Notes: generated by a model from the sequence alone, not told the origin. Positions 7,701 to 37,575 are shown, counted from the stretch's first letter. The stretch is DNA of 64,000 nt from Candidatus Avelusimicrobium faecicola (GCA_021636085.1 JAJWNA010000002.1:28690-92689), one strand, 5' to 3'. A program made the numbers and translations.

Positions 7701-7732
7701 ATCCGCGGTCCGTCGGGCCGCGGATTTTTTTG
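7701..7732 (+). terminator. rho-independent terminator after GH57 gene
   Basis: Hairpin atccgcgg..gccgcggat followed by a T8 run. Confidence 0.65.
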
Positions 7733-7816
7733 TCTATCCGGGCCATTTGGGCCCAGGCCCAATTTGGGTCTAAAGACTCTGTTTTATCCGCTACCGTTTT
7801 TACTATACTAATAATA

Positions 7817-8932
7817 ATGAAAACATTAATTATTACACTACTATTGTTAGCCACTCCGTGCGCGAGTGTATTTTCCCAGGGGCTTGTAAGAACCCTGCCC
7901 AAAACGGCCAAACAAGCCGTTAAACGCTCCTATAAAAAGCAATCCCCCACCCTAAAAGCGCGGTTCAAGGCCGAACAGGTCCGGCCTGCTTATAATGCCG
8001 CCACGGCACGCCGCATTGATTTAGTCATGAAAAAAACCGCCGCTAAAGATTTGTTAGCCCGCCGCCACCTTTATAATATGGAAATGCAAAAAGTTATCCA
8101 AGCGTTGCCCAAAATACAAGCGCTGGAAAAGGCCCCCAATGCCGCCGCATTGGCCGAAGTAAAAACATGGGTGGAAAACCAGATTATCAACAAAACGCTC
8201 AAAAAGACGTTGCTAACCTTACTGGAACAAAAAAAATACGCGCAAATGGCGCAGGAATTGTCCGATTATTACGCCATTCCGTTAGACAGAGATTTACTGG
8301 CATTATCCCAAAAAAATATGCGTGAAACAGTGGTAGAAAGTGCGTTGGCCTATACCAAACGCCACCCGCACAAACCCAATTTGCCGTTGCGGGAGTTGTT
8401 AAAGTCGGAAAAAGTAAACGCCCGCACCAAAGAAAACATCCAACGCTATTTGAATAATCCGGTCATGGTCTCGCATGTGCCCTTGGGTTTCAAAACCATG
8501 GTCCGCACCGCCTACAAACAGCACTATAAAGGCGTGCGCCAAGCGGTCAACTCGCCGGAAGTGCAAGCCACGGTAATGTCTTACAATAAAACGGTAGCGG
8601 AGTTGCGCAAATTTGTAGCCAAACACCACCGCCAGCCCCGCTGGAATGCCCCGCTGGCCGAACGCCGCCTGTACAACAAATTGCAGTTAATTATAGTGCA
8701 TAACGTGACCAACTGCTTTTGTGAAGCGGAAACCGTCAAGCAGGAAATACGCGCCATTTTGGCTAAATATCCGAACCGCTCTTACGAAGAATTTTATAAA
8801 GATTATACCAACTTTGTAAAAACGTTTAAGCGCCAACCGGAACCGCTGCCTCAGCGCCCGGGTGCCTCCCCGCGCGAACAACGGCTGTATGATGAAATGG
8901 CCCGCTTTATGATAGACGGACAATTAAAATAA
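7817..8932 (+). CDS. secreted hypothetical protein (signal peptide, Lys/Arg-rich, no recognisable domain)
   Basis: Long ORF with normal codon usage. Start is trimmed to MKTLIITLLLLATPCASVFSQ, a signal peptide. Terminators bound it on both sides. Confidence 0.6.
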   Translation: MKTLIITLLLLATPCASVFSQGLVRTLPKTAKQAVKRSYKKQSPTLKARFKAEQVRPAYNAATARRIDLVMKKTAAKDLLARRHLYNMEMQKVIQALPKIQALEKAPNAAALAEVKTWVENQIINKTLKKTLLTLLEQKKYAQMAQELSDYYAIPLDRDLLALSQKNMRETVVESALAYTKRHPHKPNLPLRELLKSEKVNARTKENIQRYLNNPVMVSHVPLGFKTMVRTAYKQHYKGVRQAVNSPEVQATVMSYNKTVAELRKFVAKHHRQPRWNAPLAERRLYNKLQLIIVHNVTNCFCEAETVKQEIRAILAKYPNRSYEEFYKDYTNFVKTFKRQPEPLPQRPGASPREQRLYDEMARFMIDGQLK

Positions 8933-10395: not shown

Positions 10396-10510
10396 ATTTC
10401 CCTTGAAAAATAGCCCTTAAATGGGTAGACTATTGGTATCCACCCAGGGGGCGCTTTTTGGCGCGGCCCAAATGTTGGAGCGAATTTTTGTTTTATTTCA
10501 AGAGGAACTT

Positions 10511-12556
10511 ATGAAAAAACGCATTGGAAAAATTGTTCTAATCTCACTGGTTAGTATCGTTTTGCTGTTTTTGCTGTTGCCCTTTATGGCCCCCGGCACC
10601 GAGGCGCCGCAAGGCACTAAAAAAGCAAACCCGCAAATTTTTACGTCTAACCCGCTAACCGCTTTGGTAAACCGGATTGCCGCGGTGTTTCAAGGCAAAC
10701 AAAAACGGTTGGAACGCAAGGCCGCATTGGCCCAGGCCCAAGCAGATGCCGCCAACGCCAAATTAAACGAGCTGTACGCCTCCGCCCAAAACGCCCCGGC
10801 CGAAAGCCGTTATAGCGCCGCCGCACCCGGTACGGAAAACGGAGAAACCCCGCGCTTTAACCAGCCCAACGCCACCCAAGACGAAGACGGCAACTGGGTC
10901 CTCGTCCGCCAGACGGCCCCGGAAGGCGCCGGGCGCGGTATGCACGAAATAAACTCGGATGATGACGCTTACGAGCGCTACGTCCGCCAAGAACGCGCCG
11001 CCCGCTACACCCCTGCTTTAGCGCCCGAGTCCGACGAAGAACAATCCGCCTTCGCCCGCGTGTTTGCACCTATTAAAAATTTCTTTGGTTTTGGCAAAAC
11101 GCCGGCCCAAAAAGCCGGGGTAGGCCCGGATGCCCTGGCCTTAGCCGGAGGGGACGGGCTCGGCACCACAGACGGTAAAACCGCTTCTACTTCCGCGCGG
11201 CAGAAACCGGGCATACCTAATATTACGCTCAATACACGGCCGGCCGCAGGCGCCAAAAATGCCGCACGCGGCGGGGAATATGCGGGGCCGTTCACGTCCG
11301 CCGCCGAAATGTTTGACCCCATGGTTGCCATTGACCGCGCGACCGAGTGGGCTTTGAAAAATTCCGACGAAAGCCTTACTACCGAAGAACGCGAATCTTT
11401 GCAAGAAAAACTAAAAGCGTTCCGGGAACAAAAACGGGCCGAATTAGCCGCCATGCTGGATAAACAAGTCCAGGAAGCGGCCGGAGATGCCCCGGCTACG
11501 GACCGCCTGCCCAGCACCATCGGTTGCCGCGGGGAAAGCGGTTCCTTATACAATACCGGGGAACAAGTTTGCTCTATTTCCCATTCTATATCCGAAGACC
11601 CCTCCGCCTGGAAAGATGCCAAAGCCCTGGAGCAAAGCAAACAGGCCGGGCGCCAACAAATGATTGAAAAATTAAACTTACAGCAGTTAACCGATAAACT
11701 GCCCGAAGTAAACGTACTGGTTGTGTTAGGTAAAACGAACCATTTAATGCCGCCGGATGCCCAAGAGCAGGAGGGCAACGCCTCTACGTCCGACATGCGG
11801 GAAGTATACAACGCCCTGTTAAAAACCCAAGGGTGCGACAAAGGCGACTGCTACTGGATTCCCAACCGGGTGCAGCAATACCCGGACGTGCGCGAAGCCG
11901 TGACCGCCGCCGGGGTAAACCCGGTGGAAGACCCGCTGGATATTTACCAGAAAATTGCCCAAAAAACCTTGGAAAATTTGGATAATGAAGCGGATTTGAG
12001 CGACGAAGCCACCCTTCGTTTTATGGAAATCCAACGCAATTTGTCCGAAAAAGCCCCGGCGTATATTCCCATTACGCGCGCGCAGTTAGACGAACTGAAC
12101 GCCCGAAATGACGATAAAAACCTGTTGAACCCGCAAACGCGCAACAATAACCTGGTGTTTTATGTGCCGGACCCGCAAAACGCCCGGGACATCCGGGACG
12201 CCTTCCAGGAAAACCCGGCTTTCTTTGTGTGGGGTAAAGACGGCTCCGCTTTTGAAAGAGGAAATAACCTCACCGCCGAAGAACGCGGGCAAATTGTGCA
12301 GGAAGACTTAACCGAGCGCGTACAACAAATGGGCGCGTTCGTGCGCCAGGTAGAACAAGGGCTCCGCCAGCAAAATATTGCCGACTCCGCCCGCGCCGCC
12401 GCCGAAAAAGCCGCCGGTAAATCCACCAAAGAATTAAACCGGGCCATTAGAAGTATTAATAAATCCGCCGCCAACAAAGGTGCGGCCAAAAACGGCTCCC
12501 CAAAAACCGGGGCCAAACGCTCCGGCGCTAAAAAAAGTGCCGGCAAGCGTAAATAA
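10511..12556 (+). CDS. membrane-anchored, largely disordered hypothetical protein with a Lys-rich C-terminal tail
   Basis: Start is trimmed to MKKRIGKIVLISLVSIVLLFLLLPF (signal anchor) with an AGGAA RBS. The 681-aa product is low-complexity Ala/Gln/Glu-rich and ends ...GAKRSGAKKSAGKRK. Confidence 0.55.
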   Translation: MKKRIGKIVLISLVSIVLLFLLLPFMAPGTEAPQGTKKANPQIFTSNPLTALVNRIAAVFQGKQKRLERKAALAQAQADAANAKLNELYASAQNAPAESRYSAAAPGTENGETPRFNQPNATQDEDGNWVLVRQTAPEGAGRGMHEINSDDDAYERYVRQERAARYTPALAPESDEEQSAFARVFAPIKNFFGFGKTPAQKAGVGPDALALAGGDGLGTTDGKTASTSARQKPGIPNITLNTRPAAGAKNAARGGEYAGPFTSAAEMFDPMVAIDRATEWALKNSDESLTTEERESLQEKLKAFREQKRAELAAMLDKQVQEAAGDAPATDRLPSTIGCRGESGSLYNTGEQVCSISHSISEDPSAWKDAKALEQSKQAGRQQMIEKLNLQQLTDKLPEVNVLVVLGKTNHLMPPDAQEQEGNASTSDMREVYNALLKTQGCDKGDCYWIPNRVQQYPDVREAVTAAGVNPVEDPLDIYQKIAQKTLENLDNEADLSDEATLRFMEIQRNLSEKAPAYIPITRAQLDELNARNDDKNLLNPQTRNNNLVFYVPDPQNARDIRDAFQENPAFFVWGKDGSAFERGNNLTAEERGQIVQEDLTERVQQMGAFVRQVEQGLRQQNIADSARAAAEKAAGKSTKELNRAIRSINKSAANKGAAKNGSPKTGAKRSGAKKSAGKRK

Positions 12557-17908: not shown

Positions 17909-19543
17909 TTATTGCGGCTTTGCCACATACGGCGCGCGGTCCGGCTGTTCATCTCCGGCCCACAATTCCATTTCATCCACCAGTAAAGACGGCACCGTCA
18001 CGGAATGAGCCTCTAAACCGAATTTCTGAAAGGTTGTTTCATCCGTTCCGGCGGCTAAAATATCGCGCAAGGCGCGGGTGGTTAAATTGCGCGGCACCAT
18101 CCCGTACACCGGCTCTTCCCGGCCGTCTTTTACATAAATGCGGGTTAAACGCATCGCACCCGGGCCCGCCATGGTTTCCAAGCGGTAGCCGTATTCCAAA
18201 TCCAACGCTTTACAGCGGGCGATTAACTTTTGTTTCATTTCATCCGGCGTAAAAGCCTGCTCCGGCGTGATAAACAAATTGGTAATGCCTGCCCGCGGGC
18301 GTTTGTTTTCCGTCATACGCGCATGGCCGTTGCTGGCTTTGCGCGCCGCCGGCAAACTGCGGCTGAACGGCAAGTCGGTCAATTTTCCGTTTTTAACCAG
18401 TGTAATATCCTGCGCGGCAACGCCTTCCATATCCACCGGGAAATACCCCAACAGGGCCGTGCCTTTATAACTGCTTAAAAGCGGGCGGTCCGTAATGGTA
18501 AAGCCGGGCGCAAAAACACGCTGGCCCAGTTTATCCTTAAATTTGCCGGCGGTGCCGCCTCCCTCCGAATCACTAAGCAGGGCCGTGGTGTTGCTGATTT
18601 CCGGCACTAAAAGCGAACGGATAAAACCGGCCGCGGCCTGCGGGCTTAACAGCACCGGGCCCAAATACGGCTCGGCTTTCCGGGCCGGATAAACCCCATT
18701 TATAGCGGCAAACCACTGGTCTGCTTTTTCCAGCAGTTCTTCCTGCGGCGGGAAAGGCGTATCTACATAGTTAAACTCGGTTTCAAAGCGTTGCCGGTAG
18801 CCGGCTTTGTTGCGCAGTTGGGCCGTTAAATAAATACTCCGCACCGTATGCCCTAACCGCCACGCCCCGCCGTGGTTGTCCATATACCAATAGTTCAGGC
18901 GTTGCCCGGAAACCCGCGCCCGGGCCACATCCAAATAGGCGTATTTCTTCCCTAATACAGAAATTTCACGCGCCAAACGGTTCATATCTTCCGGCTTATC
19001 CAATTCGGCGGTATCTGCCGGGCCGATAAACCGGGCCGCCTTGGCCGGGGCAAAATCCTGGCCTGTTTCTTTCAGCCGTTTCTTGCGCTTATACGCTTCT
19101 TTTTGGGAAAACATTTCTAATGCTTGGCGGTATTCTTCGTCGGTTGCGCGCCAAAACCCCTCGCGGATTCCCGCGTAATTCCCGGCCGGGAAATATACCG
19201 TTGTGGGCGCGTACGCATACAACATACCCAGGGCACGCTCCGCCTGGAAATTATTGCTGTTTTCTTTGGCGTTCCCTACAATCATATTCACTACCGCGGT
19301 GCGCAACGGCTCGTTTTGCGCCGCGGTGGCCGCTATTTCCAACTCTCCCCACGCGGCTTGTGCGCGGAGCCCGGAAGATTGCGTCAATACATAAGAAGTA
19401 AAATAAGGACGCACGGAATCTTTTAATTGCAATTTTTTATGGGTGCGGGCCAGTTCATCTTTCATGGCGGAAAAGTACACATCCTGCGCCGCGCAAAAAC
19501 CGCCGCCCGCTACTACTAAAAGCAAAGTAAACAGTAATTTCAT
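17909..19543 (-). CDS. secreted PmbA/TldE-family metallopeptidase
   Basis: Signal peptide. TldD/PmbA-fold C-terminal region lacking HExxxH. Its start abuts the stop of the TldD-like gene (catTTA). Confidence 0.65.
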   Translation of the reverse strand: MKLLFTLLLVVAGGGFCAAQDVYFSAMKDELARTHKKLQLKDSVRPYFTSYVLTQSSGLRAQAAWGELEIAATAAQNEPLRTAVVNMIVGNAKENSNNFQAERALGMLYAYAPTTVYFPAGNYAGIREGFWRATDEEYRQALEMFSQKEAYKRKKRLKETGQDFAPAKAARFIGPADTAELDKPEDMNRLAREISVLGKKYAYLDVARARVSGQRLNYWYMDNHGGAWRLGHTVRSIYLTAQLRNKAGYRQRFETEFNYVDTPFPPQEELLEKADQWFAAINGVYPARKAEPYLGPVLLSPQAAAGFIRSLLVPEISNTTALLSDSEGGGTAGKFKDKLGQRVFAPGFTITDRPLLSSYKGTALLGYFPVDMEGVAAQDITLVKNGKLTDLPFSRSLPAARKASNGHARMTENKRPRAGITNLFITPEQAFTPDEMKQKLIARCKALDLEYGYRLETMAGPGAMRLTRIYVKDGREEPVYGMVPRNLTTRALRDILAAGTDETTFQKFGLEAHSVTVPSLLVDEMELWAGDEQPDRAPYVAKPQ

Positions 19544-21241
19544 TTATTTCTTCCCCTTGTGATTTTCTGTATACGGCGGGCGCAAAATGGGCGGTTTAGA
19601 AGGGCTCTTGGCCACCTTTTCCACTTCCATTTCGGCCACTAAAATACTGGGGGAAACCGCCGACACCGGCACCCAGCCGGATTCCGCCCCGCAACTGCCG
19701 TTAAAAACGGCGTAATCGTCCCCCGCCGCAATTACTTTGCTGAAACTGGCCAGCGGAGTGCCCACCAAATCCACCCCGCGCACTACTTCTTTGCGGCCGT
19801 CCGGGTACACCCGGTAGACCAGCAACGGGTTTACCTTAAAAGACTGCGGGGCCGAAGTGTCGGTCATGGTAAATCCGCCGGAAATATCTTCTATAATTAG
19901 CCCGTACGGTTTGCCCTGGCGCTTGATTTCTTCCAGCAGTTTTTGCTCTAGCTGCGCATACGGCATACTTTCTTGCGGCGTGATGACCGTATTGCCCATG
20001 CGCGCCACCACCCGGTACCCGGCGGACTTGCGCCCGTGTCCGTTGGATTTAGAAAAATTTTGGATAGGGCTGGCACTCATTAAAAAGTTTTTAAGTACGC
20101 CCTTTTCAATCAACGGCACATTTTCGGCCGGGTTGCCTTCGTCGTCAAACAGATAAAACCCCCGGAGCGGAATACCGTTAAATTCTTCCCAACGCGGGTT
20201 ATCGCTCACGCTTAAAATGGGGGATACAATTTGCGCCCCCACTTTTTTAGTGAACGTCTGCCCGAAAGTATCGCTTTTTTGGCGGTGGCCCTCCAAGCGG
20301 TGGCCTAAAATCTCGTGGAAAAACACCCCGCTCGCCCGGTTTTTTAAGATAACCGGCCCGGTAAACGGCTCCACCACCGGCGCATTTTTTAAGGCTTTTA
20401 ATTCTTGCGCCATGCGCTCTAAATCCGCCGCCATGGTTTCTTCGGTGGGGAAGTCCTCCGCTTTTACCCCGTCATAAATCATATTGCGTTCCAAATCCAT
20501 ACCGTCCGGGTTGCGGGCCTGCACGCTCAAAATATAGCGCCCGAACGCCCGGGAAGTAAAAATGCGGTTGCCCACGCTGTCAACAAAATAAGTATTAATG
20601 CGCTCCAGCCGGAAAGCAAAGGCGGCATCATCCACAAAATCATATTTTTCCCCCTGCAAAGACAGCCGTTTCAAGCGTTCCTCTATTTCGGCCCGGTTGT
20701 ATTCAAATGTTTTTTCCTCTTGGCAAAATACATTTTTTTGCGGCAAGGCAAAATCGTCCGATGTATCCATATTTTCCGCGGACACCTGTTTATTGGAAAG
20801 CACCCGGTTGTATTCCTGTTGGGCGTTTTCCACCGCCGCCTGCGTGCCCCGCCACAAAGCGTTGTGCAACGCCAAAGAATCCCGCCGGGCCAAAGGCACT
20901 TGCACGGAAACCAAATCCGTATTTGTATAAGTGCCTTTTAATTCGTGGGTATTATCGGTATGCACACTGCCCACGCGGGCGGAAATATCCACCGCGCCGG
21001 AATCGTCCGTAATGGAAAATTGCAAGGCTCCGGCCTTGGCATTGGCCTGAAAAGCGGACGTTTCATACAGTTGGTAAGACATATAATACACCGGCGGGCG
21101 CAATTTTTTAAGCGTTTTGAAATTACGCCGTAATTGGGTGGATAGCGCGGAAAGGAGCGTATCCTGTTCCGCGGGACATTCGGCGGCGGACACGACCCCG
21201 CCCCCCACACATAAAACGAGTAAAAAGAGAAGTTTTTTCAT
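19544..21241 (-). CDS. secreted TldD-family metallopeptidase
   Basis: HEILGHRLEGH zinc motif typical of TldD. Start is trimmed to MKKLLFLLVLCVGGGVVSAAE, a signal peptide. Confidence 0.7.
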   Translation of the reverse strand: MKKLLFLLVLCVGGGVVSAAECPAEQDTLLSALSTQLRRNFKTLKKLRPPVYYMSYQLYETSAFQANAKAGALQFSITDDSGAVDISARVGSVHTDNTHELKGTYTNTDLVSVQVPLARRDSLALHNALWRGTQAAVENAQQEYNRVLSNKQVSAENMDTSDDFALPQKNVFCQEEKTFEYNRAEIEERLKRLSLQGEKYDFVDDAAFAFRLERINTYFVDSVGNRIFTSRAFGRYILSVQARNPDGMDLERNMIYDGVKAEDFPTEETMAADLERMAQELKALKNAPVVEPFTGPVILKNRASGVFFHEILGHRLEGHRQKSDTFGQTFTKKVGAQIVSPILSVSDNPRWEEFNGIPLRGFYLFDDEGNPAENVPLIEKGVLKNFLMSASPIQNFSKSNGHGRKSAGYRVVARMGNTVITPQESMPYAQLEQKLLEEIKRQGKPYGLIIEDISGGFTMTDTSAPQSFKVNPLLVYRVYPDGRKEVVRGVDLVGTPLASFSKVIAAGDDYAVFNGSCGAESGWVPVSAVSPSILVAEMEVEKVAKSPSKPPILRPPYTENHKGKK

Positions 21242-21356
21242 AAATAACCTTATATTGCATTGTAGCAAAAAAGCCGGACCCCCAACGCCGCGCAAGGGGA
21301 ATTTTTTATTTAAGCCGCAACACAATTTATCCGAAAGGGCAAAATATCCAAAAAAT

Positions 21357-21419
21357 GAGGTATCCGAGGTTGCGAGGACAACGCCGGCGGGCAAAAGAAG
21401 ACGCAAAAAAAGCCGAGAA
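21357..21419. repeat. 63-bp direct repeat, copy 1 (62/63 identical to copy 2)
   Basis: gaggtatccgaggttgcgaggacaacgccggcgggcaaaagaagacgcaaaaaaagccgagaa, lying in the upstream region of the TldD/PmbA operon. Confidence 0.9.
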
Positions 21420-21566: not shown

Positions 21567-21629
21567 GAGGTATCCGAGGTTGCGAGGACAACGCCGGCGG
21601 GCAAAAGAAGATGCAAAAAAAGCCGAGAA
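21567..21629. repeat. 63-bp direct repeat, copy 2, overlapping the 3' end of tRNA-Thr
   Basis: Same sequence as copy 1 with one mismatch. Its last 9 nt are the 3' acceptor end of the tRNA. Confidence 0.9.
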
Positions 21630-21693
21630 TGGGAGTCGAACCCACAACCTACGGTTTACAAAACCGTTGCTCTGCCAGTTGAGCTATCTCGGC
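21621..21693 (-). tRNA. tRNA-Thr (anticodon TGT)
   Basis: Cloverleaf folds by hand: acceptor GCCGAGA/TCTCGGC, anticodon stem ACGGT/ACCGT with loop TTTGTAA, T-loop TTCGACT. No encoded CCA. Confidence 0.85.
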
Positions 21694-30579: not shown

Positions 30580-30608
30580 CCCCGGTTTTGCCGGGGCCTT
30601 TTCATTTT
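30580..30608 (+). terminator. rho-independent terminator after lipid A cluster
   Basis: ccccgg-ttttg-ccgggg followed by ccttttcatttt. Confidence 0.55.
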
Positions 30609-30838
30609 ATCCGCCTTGCCGGGCCACACGGCCCACACTCCGCGCGTTTAAGCCCCCGCACTGCCCGGCCCAAAATCCCGCGCACCGGGGCCGCCATAGG
30701 GAGCGTTCCCCTGCTATAAATGGCTTTTCCCCCGCCAAGGCTTTCCAAACGTCCGTTTATTTGATAGTATTTAATAGGATACTTCCCCCTTGAAACGGGA
30801 GAAGATTTTGCCGTATTTTAATGATTAAGAGGAAAAAA

Positions 30839-31610: not shown

Positions 31611-32255
31611 ATGAACCTTGCCAAAGTAATTGACCATACCTTATTAAAACCCACCGCTACCCGCGAACAGATTGAAACTTTATGCCGCGAAGCGGCCGAA
31701 CACGGCTTTTGCAGTGTATGCGTAAACCCATATTGGGTACCTTTAGCGGCCAAAATGCTCAAAGGCACCGGGGTTAAAACCTGCACCGTGATTGGGTTTC
31801 CGTTGGGGGCCAACGCCACTGAGGTAAAGGTTTTTGAAGCCAAAACCGCGCTGGAAAACGGCGCCGACGAATTGGATATGGTTATCAATATCGGCGCGTT
31901 AAAAAGCAAAGATTACGACACCGTCCTCCAAGACATCCGCGCCCTGCGGGCCTTGGGGGACAACTTTGTCCTAAAAGTTATCATTGAAACCAGTGAGCTG
32001 ACGGACGAAGAAAAAGTAAAAGCCTGCGAACTGGCCGCCGAGGCCAAGGCGGATTTTGTAAAAACCTCCACCGGCTTTACCAAAGGCGGGGCTACCGTGC
32101 ATGATGTGGCCTTAATGAAAAAATCCATTCCGGCCGGCATGCAGGTAAAAGCCTCGGGCGGCGTACGCACCCGGGAAGATGCCGAAGCTATGCTAGCGGC
32201 CGGCGCCACCCGTTTAGGGGCCAGTAGCGGCATTAAAATTGTAGAGGGAAAATGA
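31611..32255 (+). CDS. deoC: deoxyribose-phosphate aldolase
   Basis: [11 protein letters not shown]...CVNPYWV, and the lysine Schiff-base region VKTSTGF. Confidence 0.85.
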
Positions 32256-35200
32256 TTCAAAATTGGGATATTGTTTCTCGGATTGACCCGCAAACTAAAA
32301 GTCTGCTTTATGCGCTAGTAATAGACGGCACGGAACATGATGCCCGGCTGATTGCCAAAAAATTGGCCGGGTATGCTCAAGCTCCTACGGCCGCCGTGGC
32401 GCCGTTTGTGTATCAATTTGAATTGCCCAGCGATATGGACGAAGGGACCCTGGACAAAATCCGCACAGCCGTGACGGAAGGCATATCCCAAACCAACAAA
32501 GTAAACCAATTTGTTCCCGGCGGCGTATTGGGCGAACCCCTGTTCAACCAAGACGTGACCAAAGAGGACAAAGATTTCCCCACTTTTATTACCTTAGACC
32601 CTTCCGAAAGTTTTTTCAGCCCCTCCGGAGCCGGGGACGTGGCCAACCGCGACACCATCGGCCGCGGCTCTATTGATTTAGATGTACCCGCCGGACTTGA
32701 CCTGCAAAAACAGGTCGTCAGCACCCAATCGGAAGCGTTGCCGGAAGAACTGGCCAAATTGGCCGCCAAACACCGGCCCAACGCCGCAACTGTTCCGCCC
32801 GCTCCGGCCGAAAAAGCACCCGCCGCCGAAGTACACACGCCCCAAGTGCCCGCCGCCGCAGAGCCCGCACAAGGGCCCGCCGTTCCGGCGGCAGAAACAC
32901 CCGCGCCGGAGGTTTCGGCCCCTGCCGAAGAAAGCAACCCGATAAACGACAAAGATATGCTGATTAAGGACATGGAAGGCACATTGCTGGACCAAATGCC
33001 CTTGGACGACATTTTTGAAGCCAAAACCAAATACGATATGTTTTTGGATTTGAACGACCCGAAAGCCAATCAGCAAGCCAATGCCGGGCGGAATGCCAAA
33101 CTGGGCGACTTGGCGGACGGCAAAGACAGTTTAGAAGAAACTTTCAACATTTTTGAACAGAAAATAAAAGACGAAACCTGCTTTATGGATTTGGACGCGC
33201 AAGGCCACATTACCACGCGCGCCGCGGGAGCCGCAACGCCGGAAAAAGCACCCGCCGCGCAAGTGTCCGTTCCCCCGGCCGAAGATAAAAAGCCGGAAGA
33301 GCCCGCCGCGCAAGCCGCGGTTCCGCCCCTCCAAACCGCCCCGCAGGAGCCGTCTGCCCCGGTTTCCAAACCGCAAGCGCCGGAGGAGGATTCCTTAAAA
33401 ATACAAATCCGCGCGCCGCAACCGCAAACGGCGCAGGAAACCCCGGCCGCCGTGCAAGAGGCCCCCGGGAATGACATGTTCCGTTTAAGCAATCACGACG
33501 GCACCATTAACCCCGCGGCAAGCGGTATGCCGGATGTTGCGGCACCGCAAACGGCCCCGCAACCCAAAGAAGAAAACTCCGTGCAAATGCCGGAAGAACT
33601 GAAAATTTTGGACACGATTGCTCCGGTTGCCGGAGTCAGTGTCCGCCATTTTGATGCGACGGAACACCAACCCGCAAACCCGGATACCGATTTACCCGAA
33701 ATTACCATCCGCGAGCGGGTGGACGTATTAGAAAAAACATTCAATTTAGAAACAACCATTAATAAAGAAACGCTCCAGCGGACTTTTCAGCAAACGCTAG
33801 ATACAGAAACGCCGGAGCTGGCGCACCCGCTCCGCACCGAAACAACGGCCATGCGGGAAATGCGCGAACGCCAGGAAGCGCTGTTGCGCGAGGGCGTAGC
33901 GCCCGAAGTGCCGCAAATAGCGCCCAAAGTGCAACAGCCCGAGCCCCAGGTGCCGCAAGCCGAGCCCCAAGCACCGCAAATGGCGCAAACTGTGCCCGAC
34001 GTGCCGCAAGCCGAGCCCCAAGCACCGCAAATGCCGCAAGCCGAGCCCCAAGCACCGCAAATGGCGCAAGCTGTGCCCGAAGTGCCGCAAATAGCGCCCA
34101 AAGTGCAACAGGCCGAGCCCCAGGTGCCGCAAGCTGAAATTTCTATGCCTGCAGGCCCGGTTTTGGCTCCCGCTAAACCGGCCGATTTGCCGGATATCCC
34201 CCGGGTTCAGCCGGCGCAAAGCGTTGCCCCCGCACAGCCTGCCAAGCCGCAGGCGGCCCCAGTGGAAGCCGCCCCGGCGCAACCGGCCCCGGCCGTGCAA
34301 GAGGTGGCCCTACCGAAACACAAGACTTTTCGTATTAAATTAAAAAAACCGCTGGAGCAAACCAAAGCCCCGGCTACTGACGATTTACATTTACAAAACG
34401 ATAATAAGGCGGAATCAGTTATGCAAGAAAATAACGAAGCAAAACATACTTTTCGTATCCGGCGCAAGGAGCCGCTAACCCAGCCCCAAGCACCGTTGCA
34501 GCCTGCCGCTCCGCGGCCGGAACCTGTACAAGCACCCCAGCAGCCGCAAGTGCCGCCGATCCCGGTTCAGCCGGCCGTTCAGCCTGCACCCATGCAACAA
34601 CCTGCACCGCAACCCGCTGTGCAACCGGCGCCTGTACCACAACCGGCCCCTGCGCCGCAACCGGCCGTTCAGCCTGCGCCCGTACAGCAACCTGCTCCGG
34701 CCCCGCAACCGGCGCCTGCGCGCCCGGCCGCTTTAGGCCCCAACTCTACCGGGGCCCGGGTAGAAAAGCCCAAAACCATAGACCATTCTATTGAGCTTCC
34801 GCTTTCCGAACTTAAAAAACATAACTGGCCGCTGGAAGTGCCGCTCGTGCCTACTTATACCCTGGAAAACCTGGTTATTTCCGTCAATCGTTTTGCGCAC
34901 GCAACCACGGTTTCCGTAATTGATGCCCCCGGCAAGCTCTACAACCCGCTTGTCTTGTTCGGGCCGACGGGCACCGGCAAAACCCACTTCTTAAACGCCA
35001 TTGGGTATGCCATGAGCCAAAAACTCGGGCAGGAAAATATTTTTATGACCAACGGTGTCCGCTTGTCCCGCGGTATCCAACGCTATGTGATGGAAGGCAA
35101 TATTGATAAATTTGAAAAATTTATGGATTCCGTCAAAGTGTTGTTAATTGACGACATCCATTTAATTGCCGTCAACGAACAAAACCGCGTGCATATTTCC

Positions 35201-36016
35201 AATTTGCTTAATAAATTCTTAAAAGCGCAAAAGCAAATTGTCATTACTTCCAAATATCCGCCGGAATCCTTGGCTAAATTGGAAGAGCTGATTAATTTTA
35301 AGTTGGATTCGGGGTGGATTTCCGAATTAAAAAGTGCCCACGGCCCGGCCCATTTCAAAATTGTTAAAAAAATGTTGACCGATAACGGGATAGACTTGAC
35401 CGATAACCAGGTGGAAGCCTTTTTCGGTGCGCCGAACATCACGTTAAGCACCGTTTCGCGCAGTATCCGCCGTATTAAAGTGTTGGAACAGGTCATTTTC
35501 CCCGGGTTGGAAGGCGTGGACCGCTCCCAAGTGATGATTTTGGAAAAACTCCTGGCCACCAAAGGGGAAGACCAAAACAGCGCCATTATGAAGCATAGCC
35601 CGGATGAAATTACCTCTCTGCCGCCGTTTGGCAAAGGGGAATGGGGCCGCATTGGCTTCTTCTATCCGCAAAACAGTTCCAATATGATGAACTGGATGGT
35701 GTATGCGCTGTCCGAACGCGCCAAAGAATTGGGCATAGAAGGCAGTTTTGAAATTGCCGTCCGTTCTTCTTACGCTACGGAAAACGTCATTTCGTCCGCG
35801 TTCAAAATAGCCAACCTGTGCGACAATAAAAAGCTCAAAGGCGCGGTTATTTTGGGGCCCTCTTTACAAGTGTGTGACCCCTCTGTGCGGGAAAACTTCT
35901 ACGATATTTTAACGCACATGTTGGAAGTTATGCTCATACGCTGCGGCATTATTAATATGGAAGACGTCAGCCTGCCCAGCACTTATGTAAAGCTGATTAG
36001 CGAATTATTGAGGTAA
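32252..36016 (+). CDS. giant (1254 aa) protein: unknown N-terminal domain + ~800-aa Pro/Gln/Ala-rich repeat region + DnaA-type AAA+ domain III (no domain IV) + unknown ~190-aa C-terminal domain
   Basis: Residues ~830-1060 align motif-by-motif with DnaA domain III: [22 protein letters not shown] (Walker A), [11 protein letters not shown] (Walker B), [10 protein letters not shown] (sensor 1), and the lid region. Translationally coupled to deoC (ATGA overlap). Confidence 0.7.
33900..34135 (+). repeat. in-frame degenerate tandem DNA repeats (~39-bp and ~56-bp units) encoding PQ(A/M)EPQAPQ peptide repeats
   Basis: gaagtgccgcaaatagcgcccaaagtgcaacag(c/g)ccgagccccaggtgccgcaagc occurs at 33905 and again at 34076, with three gccgagccccaagcaccgcaaatg(g/c)cgcaa units in between. 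Confidence 0.85.
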
Positions 36017-36019
36017 ACC

Positions 36020-36469
36020 ATGAAAAAACTTTTCTTGGGCGTGTGTTGCGCTTTATGGGTATGCGCCTGCGCGGGCGGCTTAAAAACCGCCGTCAAAGAC
36101 GGCAAAATTGCCCCGCAATTTAACGATACGTTGGTGGATTCCAACTACCTGTGGGTACGCGGTTTTGGGGCGGCAAACCCCAAACATACCGGCGTTTCCC
36201 AACGCCGCATTATGAGCCGCGAAGCCGCCATCGCCCATGCGTACCAACGCGCCATAGAGGTATTGAAAGGCACCCAAGTTGATGCGGACGTGCAAATTAT
36301 AGATGCCGTCAGCCAGGGCTCCACCATTCATACCTCTGCCGACGGACTGGTACACGGTATGGAACTGGTCAATACCGAGTATTTGGAAGACGACGGTTGC
36401 ACCGTGATTATGCGTCTATCCCAAAAGCAGTTGCAACAGGCCGGGTATAACCTAAAGGAAACCAAATGA
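36020..36469 (+). CDS. lipoprotein (LPP20-like?), unknown function
   Basis: Signal peptide with lipobox VCACAG. The ORF starts 4 nt after the giant gene. Confidence 0.55.
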   Translation: MKKLFLGVCCALWVCACAGGLKTAVKDGKIAPQFNDTLVDSNYLWVRGFGAANPKHTGVSQRRIMSREAAIAHAYQRAIEVLKGTQVDADVQIIDAVSQGSTIHTSADGLVHGMELVNTEYLEDDGCTVIMRLSQKQLQQAGYNLKETK

Positions 36470-37575
36470 AAAAACTACTTTTATTAACTTTAGCCGCCGG
36501 TATATTGTGCGCCGCGTGCGGCTCTTTGCGTATCGGCCCCAAAGGGGAAGGCGAATATGTGATTGCGGAATCCCTGGTTGCGTATGACGAAAACAACCTG
36601 CGCCAGATGAAAAAAGACGGCGAACTGGAAGCCCAAAAACAAGCGGTAGAAAAAGTGGCCGGCGTATTTGTATCCGCCACCGCCACCGTGGACCAAGCCC
36701 AGTTGGTAGAGGATAAAATCACGTCCAAATCGGCCGGGTTTATCCGCCGTTTCCACACGCAAAAAGCCTACCGCAAAAACGACCAATGGTACACCCGCAT
36801 TAAAGCCATGGTGCTGGTTAAAGACATCGGGGACGTTATCCGCCAAGCCGAGGCCGACTCTTTTGCCAAAAAAACAACCATGTTAGTAGCCTCGCGCGAA
36901 GTCATCGGCGAAGAAGTTTCCGTCAAGCAAGACTGCAAACAGGCCGTCTACCGCGCCTTAAAAACACAGCCTTATGCCCTGGTAAACGGGGATAACCTGA
37001 GCCAAAATAATTTGGATAACCCCAACCAAACCATAGACAACGCCCGGCGGGAAGGGGCCCGGTTTATCATTCTGGCGGATGTAGAAGCCAAGCCGCTAAC
37101 CACCCTGGCTACGGGGCTGTCGTCGCCGTTCAAAACGTACCGCGCCAATGTAAATATGAAAGCCGTTTCCACCAAAAATTACGAGGTAGTGGCCGAGGCT
37201 TCCCAACAGTTAAGCGGCCTGGACCCCATTGAATCTATCGCCGCGCAAAAAGCCATTTCCGCCGCGTGCGAAGCCGCCGCCAAGCAGTTAACGGAGCCTA
37301 TCAATGCGGCTATCAATTCCGCCGTTAAATACAACCTGCGGGTGGAAAACGTCAACAACATTGAACGCTTGCGCCAGTTGCAAGACATTTTGAAAGAGCT
37401 GCGCGAAATTGAAGATTTCAACCTTGTAAAATATACCAATTCCGCCGCTTATTTTGAAATTTCCGCCAACATTTCCTCTGGGGAAGAGCTGGTGGCTAAA
37501 ATTTTACGCAAATACAACCAAAATTTCACGGTATCAGCGGTCACCCCGCAAGGGATTGTACTGCTGTTTATATAA
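36466..37575 (+). CDS. lipoprotein, unknown function
   Basis: Lipobox CAACGS. The start overlaps the previous stop (ATGA). Confidence 0.55.
   Translation: MKKLLLLTLAAGILCAACGSLRIGPKGEGEYVIAESLVAYDENNLRQMKKDGELEAQKQAVEKVAGVFVSATATVDQAQLVEDKITSKSAGFIRRFHTQKAYRKNDQWYTRIKAMVLVKDIGDVIRQAEADSFAKKTTMLVASREVIGEEVSVKQDCKQAVYRALKTQPYALVNGDNLSQNNLDNPNQTIDNARREGARFIILADVEAKPLTTLATGLSSPFKTYRANVNMKAVSTKNYEVVAEASQQLSGLDPIESIAAQKAISAACEAAAKQLTEPINAAINSAVKYNLRVENVNNIERLRQLQDILKELREIEDFNLVKYTNSAAYFEISANISSGEELVAKILRKYNQNFTVSAVTPQGIVLLFI

Follow-up and report, generated by a model that had tools for sequence, protein, structure and literature searches.

A 64,000-nt stretch of the Candidatus Avelusimicrobium faecicola genome (GCA_021636085.1, JAJWNA010000002.1:28690-92689; hereafter the window, with positions counted from its first nucleotide) carries a gene for a 1254-residue protein. 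We conclude with high confidence that this protein belongs to an Elusimicrobiota family in which an N-terminal domain (NTD), a linker of variable length, a DnaA-type AAA+ module and an α/β C-terminal domain (CTD) follow one another. Comparison with canonical DnaA also shows, again with high confidence, that the AAA+ module keeps its whole nucleotide-binding core and has lost the box VII and sensor-2 arginines, the residues with which DnaA contacts single-stranded DNA (ssDNA), and domain IV. The reading of its function that we prefer is tentative, with a probability of about 0.3: the protein may be an ATP-gated tether or adaptor that serves as a heterotypic cap or decoy, ending or titrating DnaA oligomers. 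The open reading frame (ORF) proposed by an earlier sequence-only reading at these coordinates was recovered in the ORF list and by translation (1254 aa plus a stop codon), and its exact sequence is found in public collections.

32252..36016, + strand: whole gene, encoding the NTD, the linker, the DnaA-type AAA+ module and the α/β CTD

The sequence-only reading had aligned residues ~830-1060 with DnaA domain III, and matches in Pfam, NCBIfam and PDB chains agree with it. The Pfam family Bac_DnaA (PF00308) matches residues 867-1022 over profile positions 3-159 of 162 (E 1.4e-30, 107.1 bits against a gathering cut-off of 23), far ahead of IstB_IS21 (1.5e-8, 34.9 bits) and generic AAA (5e-7). Among NCBIfam profiles, DnaA (TIGR00362) scores best at 4.7e-39 and 134.7 bits, well under its cut-off of 343.9 and over profile positions 99-295 of 437 only, followed by Hda (TIGR03420, 1.7e-13, 50.6 bits against a cut-off of 194.8; NF006571, 29 against 297) and the IS21 helper profile NF038214 (4.9e-13, 49.3 bits against 200). 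Of the solved chains, DnaA domain III of B. subtilis and that of Aquifex come nearest (3e-26 to 2e-24), and DnaC and IstB chains appear near 3e-3 (Aquifex DnaC at 2.7e-3). On these profile and chain similarities, residues ~846-1055 are placed in the DnaA clade and not with generic IstB/RuvB proteins, and DnaA domain III is the best match both by profile and by comparison with the sequences of solved structures. Every motif listed in the sequence-only reading is present, and its coordinates were confirmed on the sequence; the motif of the sensor-1 region lies at residues 993-1004.

34763..35530, + strand: conserved lead-in (residues 838-865) and DnaA-type AAA+ module with lid (846-1093), delimited by Pfam, NCBIfam and PDB matches, the family consensus and a joint alignment with canonical DnaA
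34961..34987, + strand: Walker A (residues 904-912, K910), with lysine in 94/95 family representatives
35141..35155, + strand: Walker B, LLIDD (residues 964-968; D967 and D968), with aspartate in 95/95 and 94/95 representatives
35279..35317, + strand: box VII equivalent (residues 1010-1022), with L1013 and K1017 in the columns of E. coli R281 and R285
35435..35491, + strand: lid segment at the place of DnaA sensor-2, without a RELEG motif and with arginine in 0/95 representatives at the R334 column

Residues were counted in a joint alignment of 95 family representatives and 23 canonical DnaA proteins. The family shares with DnaA domain III the NRFAHAA...PG..YNPL lead-in, the Walker A motif GxxGxGKTH, the Walker B motif LLIDD, the KQIVxTSxYPP strand, the lid, and a segment equal in length to the initiator-specific motif, without insertions or deletions. 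In contrast, the arginines that all 23 canonical DnaA proteins carry at the R281, R285 and sensor-2 R334 columns are replaced. No family representative has arginine at R281 or R334 (the latter is S1066 in the window protein), and the R285 column, that of the arginine finger, holds a mix of lysine, arginine, serine and glutamine, with arginine in 21/95. The replacement of the arginine finger and the sensor-2 arginine, which the sequence-only reading had noted for the window protein, thus holds for the whole family. Arginine occurs four positions after the sensor-2 column in 56/95 representatives (R1070 in the window protein) and eight positions after it in 80/95 (R1074), and, to judge from the alignment, these residues might stand in for the sensor-2 arginine. 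The K243, V211 (hydrophobic) and D269 columns, kept in 23/23 canonical DnaA proteins, are also replaced, the first two by polar or small residues, and the QEEFFHTFN motif of DnaA is replaced family-wide. The protein differs from DnaA further in having no domain I and no domain IV and in carrying N- and C-terminal domains of its own. A Pfam search of the protein gave no match to Bac_DnaA_C (PF08299, domain IV) or DnaA_N at E<=1, and the C-terminal region is predicted to be α/β, which bears out the earlier claim that domain IV is absent.

The layout defines the family more than its size does. A search with residues 821-1254 (a 434-aa query) returned ~110 representatives at 50% clustering that match the query end to end, from ~35 to 432, with identities falling to ~25% and total lengths of ~400 to 2568 aa. 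Because the same NTD, linker, AAA+ and CTD order spans this range, giant size is not a defining feature; the sequence-only reading was right that the architecture is undescribed, in that no description of the family was found in the literature searched, but the giant form it stressed is one end of a continuum. All members with a named organism, the most divergent ones included, come from Elusimicrobia/Elusimicrobiota. Database labels are "DnaA/Hda family protein", "ATP-binding protein" and "hypothetical protein", and, wrongly, "chromosomal replication initiator protein" and "ZapE". Two loci with the full Elusimicrobiaceae gene order and 78-79% identity are titled 'Muribaculaceae bacterium' (L026) and 'uncultured Spirochaetes bacterium' (L034); in both cases the genome was probably mis-binned or mislabelled. 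A place in a defence system found no support, as the PADLOC models gave nothing beyond a weak match to mad8 at the AAA+ level (1.1e-7) and no match for the neighbouring genes.

A profile built from 22 members separates the family (310-551 bits, full coverage) from tandem double DnaA-AAA+ proteins (240-260 bits) and from canonical DnaA (<=200 bits). The tandem proteins, for example from Gemmatimonadaceae, are therefore the next-best matches, ahead of canonical DnaA, but they have two DnaA-type modules, keep the RLrsRF arginines in the second, and have no NTD, linker or CTD. This group is ~480-700 aa long and includes P0195, P0196, P0210, P0213, P0220, P0224, P0230 and others, as well as P0351-P0353; the second module keeps a QEElFhlFn motif, local scans found no domain IV match, and one member is named Gemmatimonadaceae. 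Two giant relatives, P0178 (1876 aa) and P0191 (1990 aa), have two DnaA-type modules ~1400 residues apart.

The gene is real and vertically inherited, since it is a single ORF in 73 of 76 species and lies in invariant synteny. Species-representative genomes were scanned with the AAA+-CTD alignment; the best 80 loci all belong to Elusimicrobiaceae, and 76 of them hold both ends of the gene. In 73 of these 76 species-level loci one ORF of 858-1206 aa runs unbroken from the NTD to the C-terminus, and two of the three exceptions are truncations at contig ends. Full-length proteins of 1187-1271 aa, 86-97% identical, occur in more than 100 independent assemblies, and the cultured isolate Elusimicrobium simillimum Sma112 encodes a ~1229-aa version on a 1.9-Mb contig. 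Indels between 120 close variants are limited to residues ~551-650 and, to a minor extent, 776-800, and the remainder is 89-100% identical; these zones coincide with the two arrays located by Tandem Repeats Finder at nucleotides 33922-34137 and 34607-34713. The repeat copy number at 33922-34137 differs between strains or assemblies of one species, giving proteins of 1187-1271 aa among the listed variants and of up to 1307 aa among cluster members.

An assembly or gene-calling artefact, in which separate genes were fused across the repeats, was named in the sequence-only reading as an explanation to be checked. This inconstant copy number could be taken to favour it, as could one Elusimicrobiaceae metagenome scaffold (L003:6385-9491), on which the gene is divided into an NTD-plus-linker ORF of 520 aa and an AAA+-CTD ORF of 496 aa by 53 bp of AT-rich spacer that contains stop codons. 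However, the independent full-length assemblies, the unbroken ORFs in 73/76 species-level genomes including E. simillimum Sma112, and the restriction of length variation to ~100 residues reduce its chance to almost nothing, and we regard it as refuted for practical purposes. The split may be real in one clade, because the 496-aa product is found on 4 contigs and several further products of ~495 aa exist (P0322-P0326). Two adjacent ORFs of this kind in one lineage are consistent with two cooperating modules.

The NTD and the linker precede the AAA+ module.

32252..32626, + strand: NTD, residues 1-125 (family core ~1-80), with a MIxxW start and invariant W5, from jackhmmer and alignment
32627..34762, + strand: low-complexity linker (Pro 16.5%, Ala 16.3%, Gln 10.6%, Glu 8.2%), hypervariable in length between species and strains
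32936..33226, + strand: conserved linker island, residues 229-325, conserved in 73 Elusimicrobiaceae orthologs and also present at L003, where the gene is split, in the first of the two ORFs
33689..33811, + strand: conserved linker island, residues 480-520, DLPEITIR...KTFNLETT, from the ortholog alignment
33922..34137, + strand: tandem-repeat array with periods of 21, 30 and 51 nt (Tandem Repeats Finder), the main site of within-species length change
34433..34471, + strand: conserved basic island, residues 728-740, from the ortholog alignment and reading of the sequence
34607..34713, + strand: second, shorter tandem array with periods of 18 and 48 nt and QPAPxP units (Tandem Repeats Finder)

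In jackhmmer searches the NTD was found at the N-terminus of 124 family members that are not close relatives, including short ones of 536-557 aa. It gave no Pfam match and no sequence match in the PDB. A divergent DnaA domain I was rejected as its origin at the sequence level (hhalign probability 0.2%, and no PF11638 match). The whole protein has no signal peptide and no transmembrane segment. The sequence-only reading had described N- and C-terminal domains and ~750 aa of repeats. Both domains are real and conserved, but the middle ~720 aa are mostly low-complexity sequence with islands, and true tandem repeats make up only ~100 residues. Across the 73 orthologs, the islands 229-325, 480-520, 728-740 and 838-865 are strongly conserved, with hypervariable Pro-rich spacers between them. 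Over the whole family the linker ranges from <100 to >2000 residues.

The linker might itself be the working part, as a multivalent hub or condensate scaffold in which its motifs are bound by the folded domains of the same or a partner protein and ATP tunes assembly. Its length, its Pro/Ala/Gln/Glu-rich composition with conserved islands, and a [KE]TF[NR][IL] motif that occurs four times (residues ~296, 495, 691 and 732) would suit such a role, as would the freedom of linker length and the variation of repeat copy number within species. Further, in other lineages a partner ORF described below shares the linker-plus-α/β-domain design. We nevertheless consider a hub distinctly unlikely: the proposal draws on composition, the repeated motifs are short and may have arisen by chance, and the homology of the partner domain is not significant (probability 11-32%).

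35507..36013, + strand: C-terminal region, residues 1086-1254 (core 1131-1254), a lead-in helix and a four-stranded β-α-β-α-β-α-β-α domain

An AlphaFold2 model of the CTD, made from a 30-sequence alignment, has a pLDDT of 92.7 and a pTM of 0.86. The CTD has no Pfam match and no sequence similarity to any PDB chain. The conserved residues are P1139, Y1174, F1184, C1190, G1202, P1203, F1216 and H1222, and in the model the most conserved of them, P1139, Y1174 and G1202-P1203, sit at the C-terminal ends of strands β1-β3. In the model this conserved site lies at the usual ligand site of α/β domains and is thus a putative pocket. Foldseek returned lumazine synthases and Argonautes interleaved, all weak (E >=8e-4) and with TM-scores near 0.5. 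The CTD may be compared with the four-stranded parallel α/β class of the Argonaute/PIWI MID domain, lumazine synthase and MoaB/MogA; it differs in lacking sequence similarity to them and PIWI or PAZ neighbours, and no PIWI match was found in the protein or its neighbours. Since Foldseek mixes MID with lumazine synthase, and since no conserved lysine, arginine or glutamine corresponds to the Tyr-Lys-Gln-Lys set that binds the 5'-phosphate in MID, we call the CTD at most MID-like, and in fold only. An origin as a degenerate second AAA+ module was rejected: the hhalign probability against the AAA+ profile is 0.6%, and an apparent match at 99.2% to the second module of the tandem proteins is due to a misclassified family member (P0244), with true tandem proteins having no CTD (E>1).

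We therefore think it highly doubtful that the CTD acts as MID does, binding a 5'-phosphorylated nucleic-acid end or a nucleotide within an ATP-dependent DNA-end or ssDNA factor, for example in transformation or recombination. The position of the conserved residues along the C-terminal edge of the β-sheet is indeed that of the ligand in MID and Rossmann-like domains, and comM, dprA or recO adjoin the gene in several lineages. Against this stand the equal rank of lumazine synthases, the missing phosphate-binding residues, the want of sequence similarity to PDB chains, and the loss of the DnaA ssDNA-contact residues from the AAA+ module.

The cap or decoy that we prefer can be set out in steps. 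The kept nucleotide-binding core suggests that the module binds ATP as a switch, and alone it would be unable to build a DnaA-type filament or to hold DNA in the manner of DnaA. Because its P-loop face is still DnaA-like, it could take the arginine finger of the canonical initiator; because it would then offer no arginine to the following subunit, the DnaA oligomer would be capped. The NTD might attach the protein to a partner at a fixed place in the cell, with the long Pro-rich linker as a flexible tether, and the CTD pocket may bind a further ligand or a peptide motif. The same design, with a terminal docking domain, a Pro/Gln-rich linker and a C-terminal working module, is known in tethered proteins of the FtsK/ZipA type; the likeness is one of analogy only, as the window protein has no membrane anchor, its ATPase is AAA+ rather than RecA-like, and there is no sequence relationship.

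A mechanism like that of Hda is disfavoured, because the family has no arginine finger and no β-clamp-binding motif. Hda has ~230-250 aa, consists of domain III only, and depends both on an arginine finger of its own and on a motif near the N-terminus that binds the β-clamp. The window family resembles Hda/HdaA as a DnaA-clade AAA+ paralog without domain IV that coexists with canonical DnaA, but it has lost the arginine finger, has three extra regions and falls below the TIGR03420 cut-off. A search for a clamp motif of the QL[SP]LPL type gave no strict match in the protein, and a loose match at residue 1093 is kept in 1/74 orthologs. HdaB is a relative of DnaA domain IV and is distinct from the window family. 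DnaC, DnaI and IstB belong to the same AAA+ initiator clade and give weak matches, but their scores are far under the DnaA match and the window protein has no helicase-binding N-terminal domain. Elusimicrobiota are reported to use DciA and to lack DnaC/DnaI (DciA study and its supplement).

The same study places the dciA gene of E. minutum within or beside a dnaA-dnaN-recF-gyrB-gyrA operon, and its supplement lists for E. minutum Pei191 no DnaC, no DnaI and one DciA, Emin_0004. Such a locus tag, we infer, is what a canonical dnaA near the first number of the genome would lead one to expect. Since a canonical dnaA operon and DciA are thus reported for E. minutum, the gene studied here would be an extra paralog and not the initiator. 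No Elusimicrobial names were present among the canonical DnaA matches that were looked up by name.

Several points weigh against a role on DnaA oligomers. The proposed tie to DnaA is drawn from sequence, and the NTD profile does not resemble that of DnaA domain I. The box VII face is strongly conserved in a form of the family's own (LEE..F..GW..ELK), which suggests a family-specific interface and not a dead surface, and about one fifth of the members have arginine at the R285 column. The canonical dnaA evidence comes from E. minutum, a relative of the window organism. No origin- or terminus-like turn of the GC skew was found in the 64-kb window, where the skew is below zero and its cumulative curve declines steadily although most genes lie on the + strand. 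In addition, no replication gene recurs among the conserved neighbours in the Elusimicrobiaceae loci and in seven further contigs from beyond that family; what is conserved there is tpiA/deoC, two secreted lipoprotein-like proteins, comM-dprA, a GAF histidine kinase and PilB/PilT-type ATPases.

31611..32255, + strand: deoC (Pfam DeoC), sharing 4 nt (ATGA) at its stop codon with the start of the gene
36020..37575, + strand: two proteins with a signal peptide and cysteine, 149 aa and 369 aa, with an ATGA overlap between them, from their translations; no Pfam match

The context given in the sequence-only reading was confirmed in the window: the gene is not beside dnaN, it is coupled to deoC, and the two lipoprotein-like genes and comM-dprA follow. 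Neither dnaA nor dnaN lies within the window, and the gene is in no replication operon. Downstream the order is the 149-aa and 369-aa proteins, comM, dprA, topA and xerC, with most junctions overlapping or abutting; the genes upstream form an envelope-biogenesis run, bamA-skp-lpxD-lpxC-fabZ-lpxA-lpxI. In Elusimicrobiaceae the gene order is all but fixed as tpiA-deoC-gene-lipo149-lipo369-comM-dprA-topA, so the synteny that the sequence-only reading suggested for a survey of related genomes is conserved there. The deoC overlap is kept, the NTD match begins 641 nt after the deoC match in nearly all loci with both, and homologs of the 149- and 369-aa proteins lie downstream in about 80 loci. Because the best 80 loci of the genome scan all belong to Elusimicrobiaceae, synteny across the phylum rests on the seven further contigs. 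Among these, deoC or tpiA lies upstream in L004 (deoC directly) and L087, whereas in L086 it is found no more than 4 kb away. Homologs of the 369-aa protein lie downstream in L001, L002, L086 and L087, and L086 also has a homolog of the 149-aa protein (L086:11991-13584, L001:11631-12728, L002:11736-12854, L087:7026-8126). These neighbours thus persist across lineages where the DnaA-like gene is only 25-35% identical. A GAF histidine kinase followed by GNA1162-like and CsgG-like (CsgG/LpoB-like) lipoproteins is found in L001, L002 and L086, PilB/PilT-type ATPases or a pilus cluster adjoin the gene in L004, L085 and L086, comM-dprA is present in L001 and L002, and recO in L085.

In three of the non-Elusimicrobiaceae lineages an unannotated partner ORF of 396-606 aa has a stop that overlaps the start of the gene (L001:6171-7991, L002:6352-8004, L086:6814-8004). 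Its N-terminal helix (ESIDEILSDLNGLLNKMP) is followed by a linker rich in Pro, Glu and Ala and by a C-terminal domain of ~125 aa, α/β in type and conserved. This last domain aligns in register with the CTD, at a level that is not significant (hhalign E 2e-4 to 7e-4, probability 11-32%), and the ORF may encode a partner protein or a CTD paralog. A derivation of linker island 235-266 from the N-terminal motif of the partner ORF was unsupported (E ~0.015, probability 2-3%).

These neighbours bear on an alternative that we regard as possible if rather unlikely, namely that the DnaA-type module was recruited to serve, apart from replication initiation, as an ATP-gated scaffold in a process associated with the envelope, pili or the uptake of DNA. 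The persistence of both lipoprotein-like genes beside so divergent a gene, the GAF histidine kinase and the GNA1162-like and CsgG-like lipoproteins that often follow, the PilB/PilT-type ATPases or pilM-to-secretin cluster alongside, and comM-dprA downstream or recO adjoining all point in this direction. The overlapping stop and start codons that link the window genes and the three lineages in which the overlapping partner ORF has a Pro-rich linker and a C-terminal domain that may be related do so as well. However, the protein carries neither a signal peptide nor a membrane segment while the lipoproteins are exported, no class of neighbour is universal, adjacency of dprA-topA and comM-dprA is widespread in bacteria as a matter of general knowledge, and gene order shared at the level of a phylum can be historical and not functional.

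Taken more broadly, the protein could be part of a previously unrecognised, phylum-wide control of a core DNA transaction, in which a DnaA mimic that binds ATP but can neither polymerise nor hold DNA is held on an elastic, disordered tether and joined to a MID-like pocket that reads a nucleic-acid end, a nucleotide or a peptide; otherwise it could be the first clear co-option of a DnaA module outside replication. We put this broader statement forward as an unlikely one. If phylum-wide control of this kind were real, it would add to the initiator clade a class of AAA+ regulators unlike both Hda and DnaC. The DnaA-clade AAA+ set is small and well studied (DnaA, Hda, DnaC/DnaI, IstB and Orc/Cdc6), and to our knowledge all of its members couple ATP to assembly on DNA by an arginine finger. 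A paralog that lacks the residues for assembly and DNA contact, and has an ATP site and two domains without relatives by sequence, would be a natural experiment in repurposing the initiator module, and this pattern of loss together with the new pair of domains would surprise a replication specialist. The evolution of the linker around fixed domains is extreme, in length as in copy number within species. We know of nothing on the control of replication initiation in Elusimicrobiota; if the protein acts on DnaA, it would represent a new control mechanism for initiation, and if not, a wider use of the DnaA fold. Experimental tests are possible, since the cultured relatives E. minutum and E. simillimum carry the gene.

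Counts of promoter and terminator sites in the window are at chance level. A strong terminator-like hairpin at 30580-30596, after lpxI, and a promoter-like site at 30790-30819, just before tpiA, suggest a transcription unit of tpiA, deoC, the DnaA-like gene, the lipoprotein genes, comM and dprA. Elsewhere in the window, two + strand ORFs of 400 aa and 711 aa (7730-8932 and 10421-12556) have no Pfam match at E<=1e-5. Two adjacent PmbA/TldD-type metallopeptidase genes on the - strand (17909-21406; 544 and 620 aa), with a Pfam match in the C-terminal domain only, adjoin a tRNA-Thr gene at 21621-21693.

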